Notes: generated from the sequence alone by a model not told the origin. A DNA stretch of 64,000 bases from Fusobacteriota bacterium (GCA_026387965.1 JAPLKR010000103.1:529-64528), one strand, 5' to 3'. Positions 7,278 through 59,589 are shown, counted from the stretch's first letter. Numbers and translations are program-made.

Positions 7278-8519
7278 TTATAATAATGTCGTAACAATAT
7301 ACAAAAATCCTCCAACTAATCCACCTACAATGGCTCCATTAAGTCTAATATATTGTAAATCATCATACACTTCATCTTCAATATAACGAATAAACTCCTT
7401 TTCTGACATTGAAATGATCTCACGCTTTATGAGTTGTGTTAACGTATCAATTAGTGAATATTTTTGAGCCGTATCTATGAGCAGTTCCGAAATTTCGTGG
7501 TTTATGATAGCTGAACACTCTTCATTTAATAAATTCGTTGAAATATGTTGGATCATTTTATCAATTATTTTTTCGGTTTGAGAAGCTCCTCGACTCTCTG
7601 TAGATAAAAACTCAAGAAGGCTTAAAATGAGCTGATCTATTCCTGAAATGATATGATCTCTTATATTTTTTTGAGAAAGTACTTTTTCAATAACAACATT
7701 AAAACTTACTGCATCAAAAGTGTCTTTTAATAAATTATTTTGATAAGAAAGAAGTTGGTTTTTGATTTCACATATAATATCACTACTTGAATTTTCAACT
7801 TTGTCTAATTCTTCTAAAATTTCATTTACAACATCTTGACCTTTTTTGTTTGCAAAAAATTTCAATGGCCCCCATAGATGAGACTTTACTTTATTTTCAA
7901 TATCATTTTCAAAACGTTTTCTATTTTGAATAATATAATTTTTAACAACCATTCCAAATTTCGGAATCATTATATCTATAAACCCATTACTCAGAGCTCC
8001 TTCGATTATCTTCGCAACATCTTTGGCAAAATCTCTCTTCCTAAGAAAAATGACTAGCTCTCCGACACCTTTTTCTAGAGCACTCAATTTTTTAAACTCA
8101 TCTAGATTCTGACTAATAAAAGTTATCAACTTTTCTTTAATATCTTTTTGAAATTTCACATCATTTATAAATTCTTGAATATATCTATGAAAATTTATCT
8201 CACGAATTTTTTCTTCAACAACACTACTTGGCAAAAATTTTTGTACAACAATAGAAAGTCCATTGGCAATTTCATCTTTTTTCTTAGCTAGAATATTCCC
8301 GTGAGGGACTTTAATGTTAAGGGGGTATCTAAAAAGACAGGTAACTGCATACCAATCTGCAATTGCGCCAACTAACCCCGCTTCACACACACTTATGAGT
8401 AACCTCCTCAGATCAAGACCAAATATGCCAATATTAAATCTCCAAAGTTCAAAAAAGATAAACAGTAGTAGTACTGTAAGCAGTGAGATGTTACCCTTTC
8501 TAGATCGTTTAATTTTCAC
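7278..8519 (-). CDS. DUF445 family membrane protein.
   Basis: C-terminal ...IRLNGAIVGGLVGGFLYIVTTLL is typical of DUF445. Start reassigned to GTG at 8519 (VKIKRSRKG...), which has a strong RBS AGGAGGTG and overlaps the folC stop. The ATG at 8627 lies inside folC. Confidence 0.55.
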   Translation of the reverse strand: MKIKRSRKGNISLLTVLLLFIFFELWRFNIGIFGLDLRRLLISVCEAGLVGAIADWYAVTCLFRYPLNIKVPHGNILAKKKDEIANGLSIVVQKFLPSSVVEEKIREINFHRYIQEFINDVKFQKDIKEKLITFISQNLDEFKKLSALEKGVGELVIFLRKRDFAKDVAKIIEGALSNGFIDIMIPKFGMVVKNYIIQNRKRFENDIENKVKSHLWGPLKFFANKKGQDVVNEILEELDKVENSSSDIICEIKNQLLSYQNNLLKDTFDAVSFNVVIEKVLSQKNIRDHIISGIDQLILSLLEFLSTESRGASQTEKIIDKMIQHISTNLLNEECSAIINHEISELLIDTAQKYSLIDTLTQLIKREIISMSEKEFIRYIEDEVYDDLQYIRLNGAIVGGLVGGFLYIVTTLL

Positions 8520-38332: not shown

Positions 38333-39142
38333 CTATTTTCTTACTTTCTTTTTAAAGAGTTTTGTGAAAAATCCCGCTTGTTTTGAAATATCTAGAAGTG
38401 GTAATTTTTCACCAAGAATTCGTTTAGTAATATTACGGTACGCTTGACCTGCTAAACAATGTGAATCACGAACAAGTGGCTCACCTTTATTGGCAGATAC
38501 AACAATCTCTTGATCTTCAGGAACAATTCCAATTAGTTCTATTTTCAAAAGATCTAGAACATCTTCTATATCAAGCATGTCACCGCGTTTTACCATTTCA
38601 GGTCGAATTCTATTTATGATAAGTTTAATATCCTTTTTGCCTTGAGATTCAAGTAGCCCAATAATTCTATCCGCGTCTCTTACTGCTGATACTTCAGGAT
38701 TGGTAACAATAAGCACATGATCTGCGCCCATCGTAGCTATTTTAAACCCTTGCTCAATTCCAGCTGGACAATCTACAATTATAAAATCAAATGTTTTTCT
38801 AAGTTCAGTTAGAATTTTATCCATTCCATCTTTTGTTAGCGCTTCTTTATCGCGTGTTTGTGCTGCAGGTAACAGCTGAAGATTCTCTCTAAAATGCCTA
38901 TCTTTAATTAATGCATTTTCAAGCTTTGCTCTTCCTTCTACTACATCAATAATATCATATACTATTCTATTTTCGAGTCCCATAATAACATCTAAATTTC
39001 TCAGACCGATATCTGCATCGATAACTGCAACTTTTTTACCAAGCATTGCAAGGCCTGTACTAATATTTGCCGTTGTAGTTGTTTTTCCTACGCCTCCTTT
39101 ACCTGATGTAATGACATAAACTTTCCCATTTTCGTGTGACAT
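38333..39142 (-). CDS. minD: Septum site-determining ATPase MinD.
   Basis: KVYVITSGKGGVGKTTTTANI deviant Walker A. Start at ATG 39142 with RBS AGGAGGAATA. The longer ORF to 39262 overlaps dut. Confidence 0.9.
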   Translation of the reverse strand: MSHENGKVYVITSGKGGVGKTTTTANISTGLAMLGKKVAVIDADIGLRNLDVIMGLENRIVYDIIDVVEGRAKLENALIKDRHFRENLQLLPAAQTRDKEALTKDGMDKILTELRKTFDFIIVDCPAGIEQGFKIATMGADHVLIVTNPEVSAVRDADRIIGLLESQGKKDIKLIINRIRPEMVKRGDMLDIEDVLDLLKIELIGIVPEDQEIVVSANKGEPLVRDSHCLAGQAYRNITKRILGEKLPLLDISKQAGFFTKLFKKKVRK

Positions 39143-39563
39143 TATTCCTCCTAATTTTTCCCTGTATGGCGACAACGTGTACCTGTTGCCACTCAATATT
39201 TTCAATTTTAACGAGTACAAATTGTGCAATTCTTTCCAAAGGCATAATTGTATAACTATCACAACTTAAGTTTGCTACAATGACTTTAATTTCACCTCTA
39301 TAATCACTATCAATCGTGCCTGGGGTATTTAAAAGAGAAATCCCATATTTAATGGCGAGACCACTTCTTGGTCTTACTTGAATTTCATACCCTAGAGGAA
39401 TTTCAACTCTAATTCCCGTTCTGACTAATGTTCTTTCTAATGAATTAAGCACTATCGGTTCAGAAATAAATGCATACACATCCATACCTGAAGATCCAAT
39501 AGTCATCTGTTCTGGAAGCTTTACACCATCTTCACAAATAATTTTAACACACACTTTTTTCAT
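39099..39563 (-). CDS. dut: dUTP diphosphatase (dUTPase).
   Basis: dUTPase motifs GSSGMDVYA, RSGLAIKYGI, GTIDSDYRGEIKVI. 154 aa. Confidence 0.85.
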   Translation of the reverse strand: MKKVCVKIICEDGVKLPEQMTIGSSGMDVYAFISEPIVLNSLERTLVRTGIRVEIPLGYEIQVRPRSGLAIKYGISLLNTPGTIDSDYRGEIKVIVANLSCDSYTIMPLERIAQFVLVKIENIEWQQVHVVAIQGKIRRNNVTRKWESLCHYIR

Positions 39564-40791: not shown

Positions 40792-41859
40792 TTAATGTTC
40801 AGCTTTTGCCATAAAGTATATTCCAATAATCAACGCTATAATTTTAGGACATAACACCAAAATTATTGTTGGTAAGCGAGGGTTTCCTGCAAGTGTAATA
40901 AAAATTGAATTTATAATAAAAAATCCATATCCAATAACCACCGCAAGTGCAATACTTACTGCTGCACCTCCTCTTACATAACGACTTCCTAAGGCAAATC
41001 CTAAAAAGCATGTAAAAAAGCTCATAAAAGGAAAAGCGAATACTTCATAAAAAGTGGCTAAAAGTTCGGTCTTTTGTTTTAACGTAAAGTTATAACTTCC
41101 AATGATTTTATAAAGTTCCCATGGTGTAGTACTCTCAGGGGTAACAGTTCTCTGTATGTCCTCTTTAAATTGAATATTTATAAAATCCGCAGAATATAAG
41201 GAAATTGTTTTAATGGTTCCCTTTTGTATATCATTTACGGTCACGTCATGAAGTGTCCATACACCACTTCTTTGCTCTCCACTTCGAGCAGTAAAGATCA
41301 TCATAACTTTCGAAAAATCAGGGGAAACCTCGACAACTTCCATATTTGTAAACGTTTTTAAAATAACATTAGCCTGCTGGAAATAATAATAGAAATTTCC
41401 TGACTTCATATATGAATTATTTAAAATTGGACTTTCTTTAATCTCGCCATTAGATCGGTGCTGTAAATTATTTGAAAAATACGTCAATTTAGGTGCCCAT
41501 TCTGTATTCACATAAAGTAAAAAACAAGACAAAATAAACGTGACGATTATGGGGTATATCATAATTCTTTTTAAACTTATTCCACTCGTTTTGAGAGCAA
41601 TTATTTCCAAACTGCTAGCCATTTTATTGGTAAACATCAAACACCCAATGAGAACGCCTACTGGCGCAACCATAACAATATGAGAGGGTAAAAGTTCTAA
41701 AATAGAGATCATACCAGCATTTATAGAATAATCGCCTTGTAAAACAGGACTTATCACTCTAAAAAAATCTGAAAGAAAATAAAATAGAGTAAATGCAGCT
41801 ATTCCAATTGTAATGGATTTGATATAATTTATGGTTACGTAGCGATCTAACTTTTTCAT
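40792..41859 (-). CDS. lptG: LPS export permease, LptF/LptG (YjgP/YjgQ) family.
   Basis: 355 aa. N-terminal TM cluster, periplasmic beta-jellyroll insert, C-terminal TM pair. Paired with a second copy. Confidence 0.7.
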   Translation of the reverse strand: MKKLDRYVTINYIKSITIGIAAFTLFYFLSDFFRVISPVLQGDYSINAGMISILELLPSHIVMVAPVGVLIGCLMFTNKMASSLEIIALKTSGISLKRIMIYPIIVTFILSCFLLYVNTEWAPKLTYFSNNLQHRSNGEIKESPILNNSYMKSGNFYYYFQQANVILKTFTNMEVVEVSPDFSKVMMIFTARSGEQRSGVWTLHDVTVNDIQKGTIKTISLYSADFINIQFKEDIQRTVTPESTTPWELYKIIGSYNFTLKQKTELLATFYEVFAFPFMSFFTCFLGFALGSRYVRGGAAVSIALAVVIGYGFFIINSIFITLAGNPRLPTIILVLCPKIIALIIGIYFMAKAEH

Positions 41860-41867
41860 ATATATTC

Positions 41868-42965
41868 CTATCGTGTTTTTTTCTGTTTAATAAATAAAAA
41901 TATTGAAAATATGATGAGAACAATATTAGGATACCACATCCCAAAAAATGGTGTAACCGCACGATTGAGTGCTAACATTGTGCCAACTTGCATCATGGCA
42001 AGATATATAAATATTAAAATCAAACTAAATCCAAAACTAATGCCTTTACCAGAACGTCTATTTTTTATAGACAAAAGGGTCCCTAAAAAAATTAAGATTA
42101 TTGGCGAAAAGGACATAGCTAAATACTGTTGCAACATAATCTGATCAGGAATAGAATCCCCATGTCCCTCTCGTGTTGTTTTAATTCTTTCAAGTAGCTC
42201 ACCTAAAGAATAATAGGCATTATTATCGACACTTGAAGAATTTAAATTAGCTGTAAAACTTCCCAGTGGAATAACTTGTGAAGAAAAGGTTCCAGTAATA
42301 TTGGCTTTCCCCGTATTATCCATACTATAAATCATCCCATTACTCAGGGCAATTTCACCACTGCTCATTTTCATATTTTGAGCTACAGTAACCATAGGAA
42401 ACACACCGTTAATATTTTGAAAATAGATCACATTTGTCGCAGTATTAGTCGATTTGTTCAGATTCTCAACATATAGACTAAAGCCCGGAATATCTTGCAA
42501 AAATTGGCCTGGAATTATTAACATTGTGGGCCTGGAAAATAGCATTTGCTTAACAACATTTTCCATTTTTGTTCTCGTGTCAGGCACAACATACTGCAAA
42601 ATAAATAGAACAAAAAAACATATAAGTACGCCAATAATAATGGCGGTACGTGTAAGTCTTCTCACGCTCACTCCAGCAGCTTCAAAAGCTGTAATTTCGC
42701 TATTTGCCGATAGACTTCCAAAAGCAATCATAGTCCCCATTAATACACCCATTGGAATAGTAAAAATAAGTGTTGAAGGAAGCATGTATGCAAGAAGTTT
42801 TATAATAAGAATTGGATTAATTTGTTTTTGTACCAAATTATTCATTTCATTGACTAACTGTTCAATAAGAAAAAGACATGCAAAAATTCCTACTCCAAAG
42901 ATAAGTGGAGGCATCATAGTCTGAATAATGTATCTATCTAATATTTTAAGCTTAATACTTCGCAC
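41868..42965 (-). CDS. lptF: LPS export permease, LptF/LptG (YjgP/YjgQ) family.
   Basis: MRSIKLKILDRYIIQTMMPPLIFGVGIF... is a typical LptF/G start (LDRYI...). 365 aa. Confidence 0.7.
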   Translation of the reverse strand: MRSIKLKILDRYIIQTMMPPLIFGVGIFACLFLIEQLVNEMNNLVQKQINPILIIKLLAYMLPSTLIFTIPMGVLMGTMIAFGSLSANSEITAFEAAGVSVRRLTRTAIIIGVLICFFVLFILQYVVPDTRTKMENVVKQMLFSRPTMLIIPGQFLQDIPGFSLYVENLNKSTNTATNVIYFQNINGVFPMVTVAQNMKMSSGEIALSNGMIYSMDNTGKANITGTFSSQVIPLGSFTANLNSSSVDNNAYYSLGELLERIKTTREGHGDSIPDQIMLQQYLAMSFSPIILIFLGTLLSIKNRRSGKGISFGFSLILIFIYLAMMQVGTMLALNRAVTPFFGMWYPNIVLIIFSIFLFIKQKKTR

Positions 42966-50124: not shown

Positions 50125-50862
50125 TTATAATAATTTACTTTTGAATTCAAATTCATTTCCTAGATAATGTTTAATAGCAAGCGGGTCAACTGCCACTTCT
50201 GAACTTGTTCCACTTACTAAAATTTTTCCCTCAGACATAATATAAGCACGTTCTGTAATAGAAAGCGTCTCCCTTACATTATGGTCCGTTATAAGTATCC
50301 CCAATCCACGATTTTTTAGATATAATATGATGTTTTGAATATCTGCAACGGCAATTGGATCAACCCCCGCAAAAGGTTCGTCAAGCAAAATAAAGTCTGG
50401 CTCATTCGCAAGTGTGCGCGCAATTTCCACACGTCGTCGCTCTCCTCCAGAAAGAGAATATCCAAAACTTTTAGCAATATGACTAATTTTAAACTCTTCA
50501 AGAAGCCCATCCTTAATTCTAATACGCTCTTTTTTGGCAATATTTTTTAGCTCAAGTATCGTCAGAATATTTTCTTCAACAGTAAGATTTCTAAATACCG
50601 AAGCTTCTTGAGCAAGATAACCTAGTCCAAGCCTAGCTCTTTTAAACATTGGAAAATTCGTAATCTCTTCTTCATTATAATATACTTGCCCACCATCAGG
50701 TTTTACTATTCCGGTAATCATATAAAATGTCGTTGTTTTCCCGGCACCATTTGGACCTAAAAGCCCTACAATTTCACCTTTATTAATTTGCAAGCTCACA
50801 TCACTTACAACTACTCTTTTTTTATATATCTTTTTCAAATTCGTAGCTATAATATCTTTCAT
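50125..50862 (-). CDS. lptB: LPS export ABC transporter ATPase LptB.
   Basis: Walker [10 protein letters not shown], signature [13 protein letters not shown], Walker [12 protein letters not shown]. 245 aa (LptB size, no TM domain). Adjacent to the LptC/A-like genes. Confidence 0.85.
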
Positions 50863-50870
50863 ATATTCTC

Positions 50871-53116
50871 CTATTTATAATTATAGCGTATATTGTAGCC
50901 ATAAATTTTTAAATTTTGACTCGCAATATCATACACTCCCTCATCAACATTTGTAATGTTGAGATTTTTTTCAGTTGCTGAGACATTTTTGCTAAAATAT
51001 ATCTTTTGAGCGACATTATCAAACATTGCATTTTGGCCTGTTACTGTAACTTCGTTTCCATCACTGATTAAATTTGAAACAACATTTTTAATCACATAAA
51101 TTTTATTTTGCGATACAATGTAATTAAGAATTTCGCCCGTAACTGTCACCACATACGGATGCCCATTTGTATTTACTGCAGAATAATTTACCGTAACATT
51201 TTCTTTTCCTGTAATAACATCATTAAGTTTATCGTAATTGATCGTGTTACTTCTAAGCGTTCCATTCACAGTTTTTAAAAAAGCATCACCTTGCATCACG
51301 GCTCCACACACTTCTTCTTGCGAGGGGCCATTAATATTTTGTTTTGTGTATTGTACAACAATTTGCTGTGCACCAAAAGTTATATTTTTTGTTTGTGGAT
51401 TACCTTGAGTATTCACCCAATTTCCTGTCACATTACCATTCGCCGTTAATGTTTGGGTAATATTATCAAGCACAATGGTTGAAGCATTGGTATTATCACC
51501 AATTGTTGAGCTAAACTGAGCATTCCCGCTCGCATCCATCTTATTTACACCCTCATTGTCACCTTGCAATAGGGTATTAATTCGGTTTGCCACTAAATTA
51601 TAAGTTACGAGTCCCACCCCTGGTCTTTCACTCAGTGTAATAATTTTGGCATTACCGACTGATTCAGCTGTATGTCCTACCAAATCACATGCTATATGAT
51701 TTCCATAGACTTGATATTTATTATCTATATTAACATACCCTTTACCATCAAACGTTCCAGACATTAACACATTGTTATTTCCAAGTACTAAAGACATTTC
51801 ATTCGCAGAATACGTTACTGCATTGGCTCCAATAATTTTACCTGATACATTTCCCGAAGCATCCAAACTCTTATCACTCACAAGTGCGATTTTACTACCT
51901 GTTAAAAAATCGCCTAAAGAATCGCTAAATCTAGAGCCTACTCCTGTTAGATTAACACTACTCAGCTCAGCTGCGCTTCCATTTTTTAAAAAATTGGTCA
52001 AAATGATATTCGAAATTACATTGTATGTTACTATTACCCCATTTTTCATATTATCTAATTGCATTTTACCATTACCATTAACATTAAAATAAGTCGTGGT
52101 ATCCGTTATAATTTGATTACCATAAATATATTGCCCATTATCGGCAAGTATTTTAGCATTTCCTGAAATATTTAATAGCGTAATCTTCCTCGTTGCTTTC
52201 GAAAAATTTGTTTGTAAACTATCGCAGTAAATTGTTATCTGTTTAGAATTAATAGCCCCTTGATTTTTAGAGTTATTAATAATACTTTTTACTGAGCCTT
52301 TAGCTATAACTATTCCATTTGTGTACTGCACTTGGTTAGCTTGAAGCTCTCCAAATGACTGACTATTTATATTTACAACACCATTCATTAAAAGTGATGA
52401 CACATTATCTTTTGAAAACGTTATCACCGCTACATCACTTTGAATCGCTGTACTATCACCGTTTTGAGCGATTACCCCATGAACATTCCCTGTTAAATTA
52501 GCAATTGAGCTTTTTTGAGAATACACGAGTCTATTACATTCAATATGACTATTGCCTTTATCTAGAACTGAATTATTTCCTGAAAAATTCTGGTTTTTCA
52601 AGTCAATGACAGGGTTATTATTCAAAATAATCTGACCGCCACTACTTTTAATTGTCATAGATTTACTTGATGTCAATAGTTGTGTCGAACGATTATACGT
52701 AACATCTGTTCCATCAACTTCAATACTACTTGTTTTAATGACGACGCTACCTTCCAACTGTATCGTCGGAGAGTTTTGGTATGTTGAGACACCGCCACTC
52801 GCATTAAATTAATAGAACTATCCGTTTTACTGTAAATACCATTATTTGATTGCAGGGTATAATTTTGTGAAACCAGTTTAGGGTTAATAAAAGTCACCTG
52901 AGTTCGCTCTGAATTCACTGACTGCTTATCTGCTGTTAGTGTATAATTTTGATCTAAAACAAACTTTGCGTTACTCATGGTAATTTCACTAGATGATGAA
53001 AAATTTGCAGTTGATGGCGAATCTTTTTTTACATACAAATAATAACATAAAATTATCACTGCAATGGTTATGATTATTTTAACCCTTTTTTTCACATCAG
53101 CCTCCAAATTATTCAC
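50871..53116 (-). CDS. Giant LptC/LptA-like protein: N-terminal TM anchor plus a long tandem OstA-like beta-jellyroll. Carries a +/-1 frameshift near 52800..52812.
   Basis: The upstream part ([28 protein letters not shown]...[13 protein letters not shown]) and the downstream part ([26 protein letters not shown]...) lie in different frames. Alignment with the paralog (..NNGVLDSSDNLSLTGSVYG..) runs straight across the junction. One extra T in a TTT run fuses them into about 748 aa. Confidence 0.6.
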
Positions 53117-53256
53117 ACTTAACTCTTTTACATTTTATGCTATATCAAATATAACCACTAACTATTATATCATAATTTTTTATATATTTTAAGTAGCGAT
53201 TATCATAATTTTATCACAAAAAGAGAGTGATATAGGCTATCACTCTCTTTAAAAAA

Positions 53257-56055
53257 TTATTTTTGTAAATTGACTAATTTCATAGCAATGTGGTCACTTC
53301 CAATAAGTGTATTTGTTATCAAATTGTATGTTGCTTTATTTGAACTGATTGTATTGCCATTTTTATAAACTGTAGCACTTCCATTCATCACTATTAAGTT
53401 GTTCTTCATATCAATTTTGGCTTCTTGAGTTGTAATATTTGCATTTCCAGAGATTTTTGTTTTATTTAGAATTTTCACATTATACATCAATGTCGTTACT
53501 AAATTAGTGATATCACTTTTTATGTATTGCGCAGTAGCCTCAATATGCATAATATCCACTTGAGGTGTTTCTACTCCAACTTCTTTTGAGGTCTTAAATG
53601 ACGCCTGCCCTTTGGCTAAAATATAACTACTAAAATTATCAAATTCCATAAAGTTTGCTTTGAGTTCGCTTGTGTCATATTTTACTTTCCCATTTCCTTG
53701 CAACTCGACTCGTGATACTACATACTTCTTTGTTCTCTGAAGTGTTGCCTGCGAAAAATAGACTTTCGCTGTTGAACCCGAAAAATTTATTGGAACCAAA
53801 AGATTTGATTTAGTCGCATTAAATCCTTTTGAGTTTTTCTGAACCGTTAGAGGAATCACTGTCCCCACAACATTTCCTGTAAAATTAAATTGCATCAGAT
53901 TCAAATCTCCCGTTGCTTTACTTGCTGAAATTTTATCACCAAGTGTAGAGGTGACTATGGGGAAATTTGCAGAGAGGGTTTTAGTTTCAAAATTCACCTG
54001 TCCACTACTGCTTACCATTTGCATCGAATTATAATTTAGGGCCGACATAGTCGAATAGCTTATATCTCCTGACACAGTATTATATGTCAATTTATCACTC
54101 TTAATGGATGAGTTTTCTTGAGTTAACATAACATTTCCAGACAATACTAAAATCTTTGTTAATGTGTTATATTTAGCAAATTGTGCACTATAATCCATGT
54201 CTTGGTTACTCCCAGTAACGCCATTAAGTGTTACGTTTTGAGTGACAGCGTCTAAAACACCTGATGAAAAATCCACTGAATAATTTTCACTACTATTAAC
54301 AATCGAACCACTATTCGGCATATTTCCTTTCTTTTTTACAAGATCATATGTCGCATTTTTAGTGTTCAGTATCGAGCCATTGTCGTTTACTTCAACATTT
54401 CCAATAACTTGTAGCAAACTATTTCCAGAAATATTTATCTGACCGTCTGTTTTGCCCGTAATATTTTGAGTACTGTTAGTAAAATAAACGTTTCCACCTA
54501 AAGTTCCATTACCACTCTTAGCGTTATATGTTAAGGTGGTTCCATAAATCAAATACCCCTTATAGCCAATAGTAATTAGTGATTGTATGGTGGCCAAATT
54601 GGTATTTCCATTATAGTTCAAGTGAGTCGCGGTTAATGTGTAGCTGTTTTTTATATCTGAAACTGTAAATTGAGATACTACATTGATTTTATTTGAAGCG
54701 AGATTAAATTTAATGTCTGAAGCTGCCAAAACATAATTCTTTTGTTTTAAAATAACATTACCTATAGCTTCAACAGTGCCATTTTTAAAATTAAACACCA
54801 CTCTGTCAGCTCGTGACTCTTGACCATTATACAATGTGGTCACATTTGAAGCCACACCTGTCTCACTGTTTTGGTTATATTGTAAATTGCTCCCTACACC
54901 TGTCACAAGTGTTTTATACTGAGCAGAATACGTGAAAACACCTGGAATTAAAACGTCTCCACTATTAGAGTTAACACTCATTTTATCACTAATAAGCGTT
55001 TCTCTCGAATTCTTTGCGATAACTTTAGATGAATCTTCACCTACAAATGTTGTGATTTTGGATTTTTCATCACAGATAACAGAGGGTGCACGCACAGATA
55101 ACCCGTTTGAACTTCTAATCACTTCATCACTACCTGAAACAAGTGAATTTACAGCATCAATCGTCATCGTTGTTGCTATGAAGTTACCAATACTGTCACT
55201 GCCGCTAACAGGGCCATCTAACGTAGCTTTTTGTGATATCATATCAAATGCATAACCTTTTGAAGAAACATTCACATCTAAATACTTTAGGTTAGATGTT
55301 CCAAGCGCTCTACCGGTATTGTTTTTTAAATTATAACTTAGTAAATTTCCTTTTAGCGTGATAGCGTCAGCCACTACCGCATACCCACCAAACAAATCCA
55401 TATCTTGGGTGATTGTGTTGATTTTTACCCCATTTGCCCCACCTATAAGTGCAGCAATATCACCCTTATCCGTTGTGATATTTTGACCATCAATACGAAT
55501 ATTCCCCGAAAGCGTTACAGTTGAGTCACTGTTTGAATACGATGCACTATCGCAAGTAATCGTATAATTTTTAAAGTCAAGCACAACATTGCCTTTCAGT
55601 GTTACTTGTGAATAATCTTGAATAGCTTTGAATGTATCACCAGTAATTTTAGTTCCAGTAGTTTTATTTTCGAATACTGTTTCACCATTTGCAAGAATCA
55701 TTCCAGTATTTTTTGTATACTCAATTGCCGATGTAGTGACTGACCATCCTTGGGTATTCTCCCCATACACACTACCTGTAAGCGATAGGTTGTCTGAGCT
55801 ATCTAAAACCCCATTATTTCCTTGTAAAAACCCATTATTAATAGAGGCTTTTACGTGATTTAGCTCGATTTTTCCACTTTGAGTAGTTTGAGAGTCGGCC
55901 ACAACCGTATAATTACTATCTATAACATACTTTACTTTATTCATTGAAACCTTATACGTTGAGTCAGGTATTTTTTCTTCTTTTTTAACATAAACTAATA
56001 CGATAAATACCGCTATAACGACCACAATAACAGCAATCACAATTTTCTTAAGCAA
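53257..56055 (-). CDS. Giant LptC/LptA-like protein, 932 aa: N-terminal TM anchor plus a repetitive OstA-like beta-jellyroll.
   Basis: TM helix IVIAVIVVVIAVFIVLV, then MNKVKYVIDSNYTVVADSQ... paralogous to the neighbouring gene. Thr/Asn/Ser/Gly-rich beta repeats throughout. No C-terminal barrel, so not LptD. Confidence 0.55.
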   Translation of the reverse strand: MLKKIVIAVIVVVIAVFIVLVYVKKEEKIPDSTYKVSMNKVKYVIDSNYTVVADSQTTQSGKIELNHVKASINNGFLQGNNGVLDSSDNLSLTGSVYGENTQGWSVTTSAIEYTKNTGMILANGETVFENKTTGTKITGDTFKAIQDYSQVTLKGNVVLDFKNYTITCDSASYSNSDSTVTLSGNIRIDGQNITTDKGDIAALIGGANGVKINTITQDMDLFGGYAVVADAITLKGNLLSYNLKNNTGRALGTSNLKYLDVNVSSKGYAFDMISQKATLDGPVSGSDSIGNFIATTMTIDAVNSLVSGSDEVIRSSNGLSVRAPSVICDEKSKITTFVGEDSSKVIAKNSRETLISDKMSVNSNSGDVLIPGVFTYSAQYKTLVTGVGSNLQYNQNSETGVASNVTTLYNGQESRADRVVFNFKNGTVEAIGNVILKQKNYVLAASDIKFNLASNKINVVSQFTVSDIKNSYTLTATHLNYNGNTNLATIQSLITIGYKGYLIYGTTLTYNAKSGNGTLGGNVYFTNSTQNITGKTDGQINISGNSLLQVIGNVEVNDNGSILNTKNATYDLVKKKGNMPNSGSIVNSSENYSVDFSSGVLDAVTQNVTLNGVTGSNQDMDYSAQFAKYNTLTKILVLSGNVMLTQENSSIKSDKLTYNTVSGDISYSTMSALNYNSMQMVSSSGQVNFETKTLSANFPIVTSTLGDKISASKATGDLNLMQFNFTGNVVGTVIPLTVQKNSKGFNATKSNLLVPINFSGSTAKVYFSQATLQRTKKYVVSRVELQGNGKVKYDTSELKANFMEFDNFSSYILAKGQASFKTSKEVGVETPQVDIMHIEATAQYIKSDITNLVTTLMYNVKILNKTKISGNANITTQEAKIDMKNNLIVMNGSATVYKNGNTISSNKATYNLITNTLIGSDHIAMKLVNLQK

Positions 56056-56075: not shown

Positions 56076-58664
56076 TTAACTCATCTCATTTTTTAATTCA
56101 TATAAAAAATTGAGCGCCTCAATCGGCGACAATCTATCAAGTTCTAACATAAGAATTTTAGATTCTAACTCTTTTAACTGCGATATTTGCTCGAAATCCT
56201 TTAACGTATCATCTTGATTTTCATAAGTTTTATCTGAGTCAAATAATGAAAGTTGACACACATTTAACTGCGATGATACTAGCTTTTTTCTGCTTTCAAG
56301 CTCCCGCAGTAAATGTCTTCCGCGTTTTATCACCTCTAAAGGAAGGCCTGCAAGCTTCGCAACTTCAAGTCCATAACTTTTATCTGCGCCACCACTTATA
56401 ACTTTTCTTAAAAAATGCACTTTGCCTTTTTCTTCCAAAACTTCAAAACGATAGTTTTTAACATTTGGGAAGGCTCTTTCAAGTTCAGTGAGTTCATGAT
56501 AGTGCGTCGCAAAAAGTGTCATTGCATTAATGTTTTTAGCAATATATTCGGAAACAGCCCATGCTATCGAAATTCCATCAAACGTACTTGTACCTCGTCC
56601 TACTTCATCAAGAATAATAAAACTTTTATTTGTAGCATGTCTTAAAATATTGGAAACTTCAGCCATTTCAACCATAAAAGTACTTTCGCCAAGCAAGATA
56701 TTATCACTTGCGCCTATACGTGTGAATATCTTATCTACCACTCCTATTTTCGCATGATCTGCAGGTACAAAACTCCCCATTTGTGCCATAATGATACACA
56801 AGGCAACTTGCTTCATATAGGTAGATTTCCCCGCCATATTAGGTCCAGTTAAAATTAAAAAACGTTTTTCTAAATCTATTGTGCTATCATTTTTTATGAA
56901 TTTATCACTACCCACTAATTTTTCAACAATAGGATGTCTTGAATTTGCAAGCTCAATACTCGAATCTTCAACTAGAATAGGCTTCACATAGCCATTTTCC
57001 TTAGCTACTTGAGCAAGCGTTACGAAAAAATCAAGCTCGGCTATCTCTTTTGCTAATTGATAGATCGGTTTTGTTTGGATCAGTAAAGTTGCGCAAACTT
57101 CTTTGAATTTTTCATACTCTAATTCACTTAATTTTTCTTGTGCCGAAAGTATTTTAGTTTCATATTCTTTTAATTCCGGCGTGATATACCTCTCAGCATT
57201 GCTAAGTGTTTGCTTTCTTATATAATCCGAAGGCACTTTTTCAAGGTGCATTTGAGTTATTTCGATATAGTATCCAAATACTTTATTGAAACGAATTTTT
57301 AAACTTTTAATACCAGTTCGTTCTCGCTCTCTCTCTTGAATTGATTCTAAAATCTCTTCTGCATTATCCTTTAACTGGCGATATTCATCAATTTTGCTAT
57401 CATAACCTGTTTTTATCATCCCACCTTCTCGTACAGAAAAAGGAGGAACATCATGAATTGATATCTCTAGAAGTGTAAGTAGAACTTCACATAAGTTAAA
57501 ACTATTCAAAAACTCTCTCTTTGTTCCTAATATATTAGAAATCGTTTTTGAAACCATGAGAATATTTTTAATCGCAATTAAGTCTTTTCCATTTGCCGTC
57601 TTGTAAATTACTTTTGAAAACAGTCGTTCTAAGTCTAGAACATCTGCAAGTTCACGCTGAATTTCTTCTCTTGTTTCAAAATTATCGTAAAAATACTGTA
57701 CATATTTTTGTCTTATATGAATTTTTTCTATTGAACTTAGCGGACTTAAAATATTCGATTTTAAATACCTTGAACCCATGGCTGTTTTACATTTATTAAG
57801 TACCCAAAAAAGCGATCCTATGTAATTTGGTGTTACCAATTCAAGCTTTTTTTGGGCTGAACTATTGAGTTCTAACCCTTGCTCTTTTCCAACATAAAGA
57901 ATGGCTGTAATCGGAATCTTTTCAAAATTGTTTTTCTCTAAAACATAGTCTAATACTTGTGATGCTGAAGCTATTGCAGCATTTTTCCCTTCAAGACCTA
58001 AGCTTGTTACTTGATACACTTGAAAATAATTAAGTAAAAATGCCTCTTCATAACTCTTTTTTTCAATAATTTTGATATACACTCTATTAAGTTTTTGAAA
58101 ATTATCTAAAATTTCAAAAAAATCTTTATATTCTTTCTCGTCAACAATAATTTCAACCGGCATAACTCTTTCAAGAATTGATTTAAGTCTTTCCGTTTCA
58201 CTTGCTAGAAACTCTGTTGTATAATAACTTCCAGTTGTCACATCGATATATGAAACGCCAAGAGTAGTTTTTATATTCTTAATAGTCAGAATATAATTGT
58301 TACTATTTTGGTCAATATACTCCATTTCCATAAAAGTTCCTGGCGTAATGGTTCGAATGACTTCTCTTTTAACAAGGCCTTTTGCAAGTCGTGGATCTTC
58401 AACTTGCTCACAAATAGCTACACTATATCCACGGCTTACGAGTTTAGCTATGTACCCACTGGCGGCATGATAGGGAATTCCTGCAAGTGGAATCTCTACA
58501 CCTTTTTCTTTATTTCGAGCGGTGAGTGTCAAATCAAGCTCTTTTGCTGCAATTTTCGCATCGTCAAAAAACATCTCATAAAAATCTCCGAGGCGAAAAA
58601 AAAGAATTTCACTACTGTACTTCGCTTTAATCTCTTTATATTGTTTCATGAGTGGCGTATCCAT
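56076..58664 (-). CDS. mutS: DNA mismatch repair protein MutS.
   Basis: 862 aa. Walker A GPNMAGKST. STFMVEM and DE(V/L)GRGTST motifs. Confidence 0.95.
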   Translation of the reverse strand: MDTPLMKQYKEIKAKYSSEILFFRLGDFYEMFFDDAKIAAKELDLTLTARNKEKGVEIPLAGIPYHAASGYIAKLVSRGYSVAICEQVEDPRLAKGLVKREVIRTITPGTFMEMEYIDQNSNNYILTIKNIKTTLGVSYIDVTTGSYYTTEFLASETERLKSILERVMPVEIIVDEKEYKDFFEILDNFQKLNRVYIKIIEKKSYEEAFLLNYFQVYQVTSLGLEGKNAAIASASQVLDYVLEKNNFEKIPITAILYVGKEQGLELNSSAQKKLELVTPNYIGSLFWVLNKCKTAMGSRYLKSNILSPLSSIEKIHIRQKYVQYFYDNFETREEIQRELADVLDLERLFSKVIYKTANGKDLIAIKNILMVSKTISNILGTKREFLNSFNLCEVLLTLLEISIHDVPPFSVREGGMIKTGYDSKIDEYRQLKDNAEEILESIQERERERTGIKSLKIRFNKVFGYYIEITQMHLEKVPSDYIRKQTLSNAERYITPELKEYETKILSAQEKLSELEYEKFKEVCATLLIQTKPIYQLAKEIAELDFFVTLAQVAKENGYVKPILVEDSSIELANSRHPIVEKLVGSDKFIKNDSTIDLEKRFLILTGPNMAGKSTYMKQVALCIIMAQMGSFVPADHAKIGVVDKIFTRIGASDNILLGESTFMVEMAEVSNILRHATNKSFIILDEVGRGTSTFDGISIAWAVSEYIAKNINAMTLFATHYHELTELERAFPNVKNYRFEVLEEKGKVHFLRKVISGGADKSYGLEVAKLAGLPLEVIKRGRHLLRELESRKKLVSSQLNVCQLSLFDSDKTYENQDDTLKDFEQISQLKELESKILMLELDRLSPIEALNFLYELKNEMS

Positions 58665-59589
58665 TACAAAGCTCCTCTTTAAAACTATTTAGTAAGTCAT
58701 ATACTTCTTCTAAACTTCGCGCAACATTAACGGCTTGTTTTACAGTCGTAGCACCAGAAATACCCTTTAAATACCAACATATATGTTTACGCCCTTCTAA
58801 CAGAGCTTTCATATCCCCTTTATACTCGGATATAAGCTCTACATGACGTTTAGCCATGTCTATTCTTTCTGTCTTTAATACATCAGTAAATTTACCCGTT
58901 TCTTCAAACTCACGAATTTGAGAAATCAACCAAGGGTTACCAAAAATACCACGAGCTAGCATAATTCCATCCACTCCGCTCATCTCACTCTTCAAAATGG
59001 CGTGTTCAGGCATAAATATATCCCCATTTCCGATAATTGGTATATCCACTTGCTGTTTAATATTTTTGATAATCTCCCAATCGGCTATACCTGAATAGAG
59101 CTGCTCTCTAGTCCTTCCGTGTACAGTTACAAAAGAGAGATTATAATCCTGAGCCATTTGCACAAACGAAAGAGGTTCTTTGTGCTCTTTATACCCTATT
59201 CTAATTTTAATAGACAAATCCATTTTAGTGCCACTTCTAAGCGTAGAGACAATCTTCTCCGCTTGCTTAATATCTGAAAGTAGCGCTGATCCGTACCCAT
59301 TTTGAATGATTTTTTTCATAGGGCATCCCATGTTGATATCAAGATGTTTTACCCCACGTGACTCTATATATTGCGCAGCATCAAGCATAATTTTTTCATC
59401 TGAGCCAAAAATTTGAACACTCGGAGTATCGTCAAGGTTAAGAAGTTCCTCACACGTTTTTACGTTTCCCATAACAATCGCATTAGCGCTAACCATCTCT
59501 GTAAATATTCTATCTGGTAGAAACTCACCCAATATTTTTCTAAATGGATAATCTGTAACACCCGCAATAGGGGCTATCAATATTTTCAA
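58636..59589 (-). CDS. dusB: tRNA-dihydrouridine synthase (DusB-like).
   Basis: MKILIAPIAGVTDYPFR... is a Dus family start. 317 aa. Confidence 0.85.
   Translation of the reverse strand: MKILIAPIAGVTDYPFRKILGEFLPDRIFTEMVSANAIVMGNVKTCEELLNLDDTPSVQIFGSDEKIMLDAAQYIESRGVKHLDINMGCPMKKIIQNGYGSALLSDIKQAEKIVSTLRSGTKMDLSIKIRIGYKEHKEPLSFVQMAQDYNLSFVTVHGRTREQLYSGIADWEIIKNIKQQVDIPIIGNGDIFMPEHAILKSEMSGVDGIMLARGIFGNPWLISQIREFEETGKFTDVLKTERIDMAKRHVELISEYKGDMKALLEGRKHICWYLKGISGATTVKQAVNVARSLEEVYDLLNSFKEELCNGYATHETI

Follow-up and report, generated by a model that had tools for sequence, protein, structure and literature searches.

The analysed DNA, here called the window, is a stretch of 64,000 nucleotides (G+C ~34%) from a metagenome-assembled genome (MAG) labelled 'Fusobacteria bacterium' (GCA_026387965.1, JAPLKR010000103.1:529-64528). 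Directly upstream of lptB, which encodes the ATPase of the lipopolysaccharide (LPS) export ABC transporter, it carries two genes that we call geneB and geneA. On the minus strand, geneB, the split geneA and lptB form a contiguous series. geneB (53257..56055) encodes a protein of 932 amino acids (aa), the same sequence as MCX5774318.1 (locus tag NTX05_06900). geneA consists of a 5' fragment of 140 aa (52673..53095, MCX5774317.1; GTG start at 53095, longest open reading frame (ORF) from 53116) and a 3' part of 645 open codons (50871..52808), of which NCBI annotates 628 aa from a TTG at 52757 (MCX5774316.1). geneB and both geneA pieces were deposited as 'hypothetical protein', and the geneA pieces were entered as separate proteins, not as a disrupted gene. 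lptB follows at 50125-50862 (TIGR04406, 7e-108, 359 bits against a cutoff of 240). An earlier note, made from the sequence alone, had described this locus as two tandem giant LptC/LptA-like genes ahead of lptB, the first of them with a frameshift, and its ORF positions and frames agree with our ORF list and the lptB match.

The geneB protein starts with one hydrophobic helix at residues ~5-23 (IVIAVIVVVIAVFIVLVYV; hydrophobic 19-mer with a Kyte-Doolittle (KD) value of 3.6), and no other transmembrane (TM) segment was found. In whole-protein Pfam scans, the LptD_N/OstA_N family (PF03968) matched in five stretches with an E-value of 9.5e-19 (68.1 bits against a cutoff of 20.4), OstA_2 in four stretches (3.3e-9), and LptC (PF06835) in two (2.6e-7, 30.8 bits against a cutoff of 21). 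The LptC model TIGR04409 also passed its cutoff of 38 with 53.9 bits. Two models at the level of LptA equivalogs remained under their cutoffs, namely TIGR03002 (56.0 bits, cutoff 71.7) and NF008143 (19.0 bits, cutoff 234). The best LptC-profile stretch was the C-terminal one (855-916), not an N-terminal one. A profile of three geneB orthologues matched LptA chains of the PDB with an E-value of 1.4e-6. The protein is rich in Thr, Asn, Ser and Gly, as had been noted before, with a combined share of 39% in geneB and 39-41% across both genes. In Pfam scans of geneB and geneA, whole-protein or tiled, neither the LptD barrel (PF04453) nor another barrel family was found, which is what the earlier note had predicted for the C-termini, and geneB and the geneA orthologue gave no match to an AsmA or TamB family.

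The Lpt signal recurs along the chain. When geneB was cut into nine tiles of 160 aa, seven matched Lpt families with E<=0.1; six of these reached the curated Pfam cutoff, and five tiles passed the PF03968 cutoff individually. With hhalign and a small LptA-domain alignment, nine of 14 tiles were LptA-like at E<2e-4, while reversed-sequence controls gave values of at least 0.05. Three of these positive tiles, around residues 521-780, are partly circular because the region contributed to the seed; the other six lie outside it. The module envelopes were placed at ~30-135, 136-246, ~250-320 (weak), 326-415, 415-538, 535-663, ~664-780 (weak) and 773-915. Taken together, the profiles suggest that geneB is an array of about seven tandem beta-jellyroll modules of the LptC/LptA type, with an LptA-like signal over most of its length.

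AlphaFold2 models built from two-sequence alignments were poor, with a mean predicted local distance difference test (pLDDT) of 35.0 (geneB) and 29.6 (geneA orthologue), and they are unusable for jellyroll counts or for an estimate of length. Still, the better N-terminal part of the geneB model retrieved almost only Lpt structures in Foldseek, with LptD on top (5e-6). The superposition on LptC (4B54) had a TM-score of 0.74 at 2.8 A over 119 columns, and LptH (4UU4) and LptA (2R1A) were retrieved as well. Leaving out rows with a root-mean-square deviation (rmsd) above 5 A, the local fold matches to LptC, LptH and LptA had TM-scores of 0.62-0.74, rmsd values of 2.3-3.0 A and 108-123 aligned columns. 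Given the quality of the model, this is weak corroboration of the Lpt identity of geneB.

The position and size of geneB are kept in two other Fusobacteriota lineages, where a protein of 911-935 aa lies between mutS and lptB. In a metagenome contig of a sister species from the ENA (L001), the order is dus-mutS-geneB-geneA-lptB-alaS, with a geneB of 932 aa that is 64% identical to that of the window; full-length sister-species orthologues measure 932-935 aa. A more distant Fusobacteriota MAG (L002) carries mutS, a single TM-anchored protein of 911 aa, and lptB one base later, the latter being 73% identical to the lptB of the window. Like geneB, this 911-aa protein has a single N-terminal hydrophobic 19-mer; LptC matched it in six stretches (3e-29) and LptD_N in six (6e-24), giving about seven module matches. 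It shares only 24% identity with geneB, yet has the equal position and a similar size, which indicates selection on the whole array. The longest ORF of lptB in L002 (7808-8665) would overlap the 911-aa gene by ~130 nt, and the tblastn match starts at 7943; the real start is likely 7943, one base after the stop of the 911-aa gene, an arrangement that suggests translational coupling.

This second Fusobacteriota locus came from an LptB-anchored genome scan with peptide patterns, which also yielded loci of other phyla; a metagenome scan returned the sister species only. Word-indexed protein searches with three queries returned the query and the sister species and missed the L002 homologue. Their candidate lists were probably swamped by low-complexity words, and the small number of matches is no measure of how rare geneB is.

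The two ORFs of geneA most likely belong to one disrupted gene, as the earlier note had proposed. In the sister species, each of the five protein copies measures 789-793 aa, and both contigs examined for ORFs or called genes (L001 and a further sister-species locus, L059, with 793 aa) carry a single geneA ORF instead of two separate conserved genes. The cause, however, is not the single-base indel in a T run near 52800..52812 that had been suspected: the longest T run at the junction is TTT. In the window, the frame shifts at ~52802-52811, and the 3' frame opens just past a TAA at 52811-52809. The sole large gap in a global DNA alignment with L001 lies at ~52805 (junction 52800..52812), where 145 bp (L001 8919-9064) are missing from the window. 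This equals 48 codons plus one nucleotide, or residues 102-150 of the 793-aa orthologue, inside the LptC domain according to the protein alignment. A profile alignment places the counterpart of the lost segment at geneB residues ~91-137. Since the segment is also present in geneB, the window state is a derived deletion, and an insertion in L001 was rejected on the same ground. A programmed frameshift or a homopolymer error was rejected as well, given the lack of a slippery run and the loss of 48 codons. The alignment across the junction that had been offered for continuity (DSSIN followed by FNASGGV, against DSSDNLSLTGSV of geneB) proved to be a coincidence of repeat motifs, since the stretch after the junction aligns to geneB ~138-151 and not to 91-97 in the profile alignment.

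At the junction, TCTATTAATTTA is joined to ATGCGAGT, and the corresponding flanks in L001 are GTAGATTTGACG and GTAGATGCGAGT. These are short direct repeats in different codon phases, with a microhomology of 4-6 bp of the TTAAT/GTAGAT type at the junction, and such repeats around a 3n+1 deletion are the signature that would be expected of slippage. The 5' fragment retains the TM helix and ~96 residues from the start of the LptC domain, followed by an out-of-frame tail of 37 residues. Because of the deletion, the fragment scores below the LptC cutoffs (PF06835 17.8 bits against 21, TIGR04409 20.3 bits against 38). A GGAGG lies 5 nt upstream of its GTG at 53095. The 3' ORF starts with TTG, without a Shine-Dalgarno sequence and without a hydrophobic leader or TM helix; it is Lpt-like over its first ~240 residues, and the other ~400 residues have no recognised fold. 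The 3' part is 62% identical to the orthologue, with 643 aligned codons free of stops. The raw proportions of nonsynonymous and synonymous differences (pN/pS) are 0.244/0.702 for this part and 0.232/0.730 for geneB, with synonymous sites saturated in the comparison. The lack of further stops and the geneB-like pN/pS imply that any inactivation of geneA was recent, and the window copy is most likely a recent pseudogene.

The intact sister-species orthologue of 793 aa (P0003) shows what was lost. It has an N-terminal hydrophobic 19-mer with a KD value of 1.8 and no other TM segment, so that each gene has the single N-terminal anchor that had been described. Its LptC domain is full (PF06835, 9e-11, 42.1 bits, residues 13-170, profile positions 2-170 of 175). 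Two LptD_N tiles exceeded the cutoff with 21.2 and 24.9 bits (best stretches ~158-191 and 237-297), and a weaker match below the cutoff (15.8 bits) reaches ~387. The profile searches for OstA_N and LptC that had been proposed as a check thus succeeded for geneB and the geneA orthologue, not for the 5' fragment of the window. With a local LptA hidden Markov model (HMM), the score of residues 170-400 was exceeded by none of 300 shuffles. Residues 400-793 were not significant by the same measure (13 of 300 shuffles exceeded the score in the orthologue, 74 of 300 in the window copy), the C-terminal half, compared by hhalign with the geneB family and with the other part of geneA, gave E-values of at least 0.013, and its Pfam tiles had no significant match. 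geneA also gave no match to the LptA equivalog models (TIGR03002, NF008143), nothing in a PDB sequence search, and nothing meaningful in a fold search of its model against the PDB. The idea of concatenated OstA-like units in both genes therefore appears to hold for geneB and for roughly the first half of geneA, up to residue ~390, and not for its last ~400 aa.

The paralogy of the two genes is limited in the same manner. Homology between geneA and geneB covers the first ~180-195 aa (hhalign 96%, E 2.6e-9; 55 of 177 positions identical, 31%, z 11.7), and beyond this they are not significantly similar, so that the earlier description as paralogs stands for the N-terminal part alone. A phmmer search with the orthologue in 1.84e9 representatives returned only itself or its sister-species cluster, the two fragments of the window and one repeat protein of 2281 aa (P0006). 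The latter (cadherin-like/Big_9/RTX by Pfam scan, 16 stretches, E 4.6e-20) was rejected as a homologue, being a false positive summed over repeats; it is a caution for queries rich in Thr, Asn, Ser and Gly. geneA is missing from L002, which points to a lineage-restricted addition between geneB and lptB. The arrangement with two giant genes can hence not be taken as the rule of the phylum, given the single 911-aa gene that abuts lptB there.

Two candidate transcription signals lie in the 140-bp spacer between geneB and geneA, both on the minus strand. Right after the geneB stop, a terminator-like hairpin (53215..53250) with a 13-bp stem and a U-run has a folding energy of -19.6 kcal/mol (z -6.05), and none of 200 shuffles was as stable. 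It is followed by a promoter-like site (53164..53192), TTAAAA-17-TATAAT with an upstream TG (extended -10), which matches the sigma-70 consensus at 10 of 12 positions; it is a consensus match only, and the spacer as a whole showed no enrichment of promoter matches over shuffles. The predicted hairpin and the promoter-like site suggest that geneA-lptB can be transcribed separately from geneB. In this respect the window differs from L002, where the 911-aa gene abuts lptB; in the window, geneB and geneA-lptB may be separate transcription units.

The neighbourhood supplies further parts of the Lpt system. Upstream of geneB lie mutS (56076-58664) and dus (58636-59589), both on the minus strand. Downstream of lptB, on the same strand, the ORF list gives alaS, ruvX and secD/F (the latter by Pfam), and ~7 kb from lptB a pair of lptF/lptG-type permease genes of 365 aa (41868-42965) and 355 aa (40792-41859), with full-length matches to PF03739 (LptF_LptG) at 2.9e-72 and 6.6e-56; alr and a CvpA-like gene also lie in between. 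With lptB and lptF/lptG all present, the window also encodes the inner-membrane Lpt motor. The profiles and this context of lptB and lptF/lptG bear out the view that geneB, a TM-anchored tandem Lpt array, occupies the place where Proteobacteria keep lptC and lptA. No further Lpt-like ORF was found within the 64 kb with the local LptA-like HMM. Elsewhere in the mechanical ORF list, a MinD/ParA-type ATPase ORF (38333-39262, minus strand, GTG start) overlaps a 154-aa ORF (39099-39563) by 164 nt, and its true start is probably further downstream.

For comparison, LptC of E. coli is a protein of ~190 aa with one jellyroll. Like geneB and geneA, it has a single N-terminal TM helix followed by a beta-jellyroll (PF06835/TIGR04409; PDB 3MY2, 4B54; LptB2FGC 6MIT), its gene lies directly upstream of other lpt genes and lptB, and the poor geneB model superposes on it with TM-scores of 0.71-0.74. 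Unlike LptC, geneB has 932 aa with about seven modules, and the intact geneA 793 aa. Long single TM-anchored polypeptides are also known from the AsmA-like proteins, TamB and YhdP, which are thought to span the periplasm as a continuous hydrophobic groove with phospholipids as cargo; they are a functional analogy to geneB from a different fold family. LptA is soluble, of ~185 aa, with a signal peptide. It forms the bridge by non-covalent head-to-tail association (PMC5575297). LptA of E. coli and LptH of P. aeruginosa (PF03968, TIGR03002; PDB 2R19, 2R1A, 4UU4) share the jellyroll family with geneB and presumably the role as part of a periplasmic bridge. In contrast to LptA, the geneB modules are covalently concatenated, TM-anchored and four to five times longer in total, and the TIGR03002 score is below the equivalog cutoff. 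The N-terminal domain of LptD (PF03968) belongs to the same jellyroll family and LptD chains were the top Foldseek matches, whereas the C-terminal 26-strand barrel of LptD (PF04453) was absent from geneB and geneA in the Pfam scans.

Fusions of this kind are found beyond the Fusobacteriota. From the LptB-anchored scan, the gene or genes directly upstream of lptB were inspected, and as a working class we considered single ORFs next to lptB that combine a TM segment, an LptC-like module and one or more LptA-like modules. Apart from geneB and the 911-aa protein of L002, this class comprises proteins of Pyrinomonadaceae, Planctomycetales and an 'Eubacteriales'-labelled MAG. Three MAGs of Pyrinomonadaceae (Acidobacteria) encode 778-823 aa (L004 185-2521, L008 7345-9816, L010 7453-9810), with LptC at ~40-210 and two to three LptD_N stretches, the best at ~650-795. 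The 'Eubacteriales'-labelled MAG (L011 1102-2982) encodes 626 aa with LptD_N at 1.8e-18 and a weak LptC match; such a protein implies a diderm or a mislabelled organism. In Planctomycetales (L006 4883-5800), the LptC + LptD_N fusion has 305 aa. A Fibrobacteres MAG (L012 8085-9961) carries instead a 243-aa protein without Pfam match, which could be a divergent LptC, and a 382-aa protein that is OstA_2/LptD_N-like, and Wigglesworthia has proteins of 217 and 157 aa that were taken, from their position and size alone, as short lptC and lptA of the classical type.

The fusions of the other phyla abut lptB like the window locus, with two to four recognisable modules as opposed to about seven in geneB. 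Their N-terminal modules are at most weakly similar to the Fusobacteriota proteins (z 0.4-3.6 for Pyrinomonadaceae, 4.2-8.8 for Planctomycetales), and none of the loci examined there has a second paralog like geneA. The fused TM-LptC-LptA architecture is thus not unique to the window, and judged by the profile matches the Fusobacteriota version appears to be the longest and most module-rich among those compared. We found no published description of a multi-jellyroll single-chain LptC/LptA or of a geneA paralog; the coverage of the literature was incomplete, and this is no proof of novelty.

From the observed domain content and synteny we infer, with fair rather than firm confidence, that geneB is the LptC/LptA component of LPS transport in the form of one chain, and that geneA is a lineage-specific offshoot which is broken here. 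By analogy with E. coli, the LptC-style TM helix of geneB would anchor the protein at LptB2FG through LptFG, and about seven head-to-tail jellyrolls would form a continuous hydrophobic groove that hands LPS to the N-terminal domain of LptD. The covalent array would replace the non-covalent chain of LptC and several LptA units in E. coli. For geneA, the TM helix and LptC module may have been duplicated from geneB and inserted between geneB and lptB, probably with a promoter of its own; the protein would further comprise about two Lpt-like modules and the region of ~400 aa rich in Thr, Asn, Ser and Gly that resembles nothing known. The window copy would then have lost 145 bp within its LptC module, with slippage at short direct repeats as the probable cause, leaving, as assembled, a truncated anchored stub and a leaderless remnant of 628 aa. 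A recent pseudogene fits a dispensable accessory copy.

The length of such a bridge can be estimated from published values. Four jellyrolls were given as ~16 nm compared with a periplasm of 21 nm (PMC5575297), and a Borrelia model gives ~18.5 nm for the three jellyrolls of LptC, LptA and LptD-N (bioRxiv 10.1101/2022.12.21.521298). At the published 4-6 nm each, seven modules would amount to 28-42 nm, and with this estimate geneB would span the periplasm without oligomerisation of LptA.

Several points weigh against the interpretation of geneB as a complete bridge and of geneA as its broken offshoot. The stretches ~200-320 and 664-780 of geneB give weak or no Lpt matches, the count of about seven modules and the continuous groove rest on overlapping profile matches, and a length of 28-42 nm exceeds a typical periplasm, which may mean that the array is not a straight bridge. 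In geneA, the C-terminal half (~400 aa, rich in Thr, Asn, Ser and Gly) has no detectable Lpt similarity. Moreover, the survey for stand-alone lptA/lptC and lptD covered the 64-kb window only. Together with the TIGR03002 score below its cutoff, several of these points would suit a system in which geneB (perhaps geneA too) belongs to the LptC homologues but carries a non-conducting extension (a spacer, a peptidoglycan-spanning stalk or an adhesin-like repeat), and the bridge is formed by a separate LptA encoded elsewhere. We regard this as improbable, because the LptA-type signal recurs along most of geneB, the last module at 773-915 included, and architecture and size persist in L002 in spite of the low identity, which implies selection on the whole array. 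The window held no other Lpt-like ORF for the local HMM to detect, and TM-LptC + LptA fusions abut lptB in other phyla as well.

The lesion in geneA, read from a MAG assembly, is the second point to be weighed. An artefact of metagenome assembly, binning or consensus at the junction, or a minority variant, with the true geneA intact at ~790 aa, is a possibility that we hold to be rather unlikely but worth keeping in mind. It would agree with five intact copies out of five orthologue proteins and with the remainder of geneA being stop-free and constrained like geneB. In addition, a frameshift upstream of the essential lptB, on the same transcript, could be polar, which speaks somewhat against the assembled state as the dominant genotype. 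However, the junction shows just 4-6 bp of microhomology and lacks a long repeat, and De Bruijn assemblers normally do not collapse such sequence. Homopolymers there do not exceed 3 nt, and replication slippage classically yields 3n+1 deletions of this kind, between TTAAT-type repeats that are out of phase. As the microhomology is minimal, a real deletion is favoured, and we consider it reasonably probable that it occurred in the organism. Very improbable, in our view, is a functional geneA in which the two ORFs of the window work as a split gene, as a second bridge or adaptor for another lipid or lipoprotein cargo or for another envelope state. geneA orthologues are indeed conserved (pN/pS ~0.35 as raw proportions), geneA has a promoter-like site of its own with a terminator ahead of it, and a non-LPS cargo of Lpt machines was proposed in Borrelia (bioRxiv 10.1101/2022.12.21.521298). 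Yet the 3' ORF with its TTG start has neither signal peptide nor TM helix nor Shine-Dalgarno sequence, the 5' stub has lost half of the LptC domain and closes with 37 residues that are out of frame, and none of the relatives shares the split.

With geneB read as a single-chain LptC/LptA component, the locus is an uncharacterised variant of a known system together with a probable pseudogene; the family is known and its domains are found by standard profiles, and the lesion in geneA is in itself ordinary, being a deletion that hit an accessory paralog in a MAG. For E. coli, the number of LptA units per bridge and the question of stable versus transient bridges are debated (PMC5575297). If true, a natural single-chain bridge with a fixed number of modules would be tractable for modelling, cryo-electron tomography and module-by-module changes of length. 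More tentatively, the fixed length of 911-935 aa could make the Fusobacteriota bridge a ruler between inner and outer membrane, and the C-terminal ~400 aa of geneA could be a new fold, in a protein that might share the LptB2FG motor and serve a different cargo or another state of the envelope. With fused LptC-LptA proteins abutting lptB in at least four phyla of this small sample, the seven-protein Lpt machine would appear to be a proteobacterial special case.

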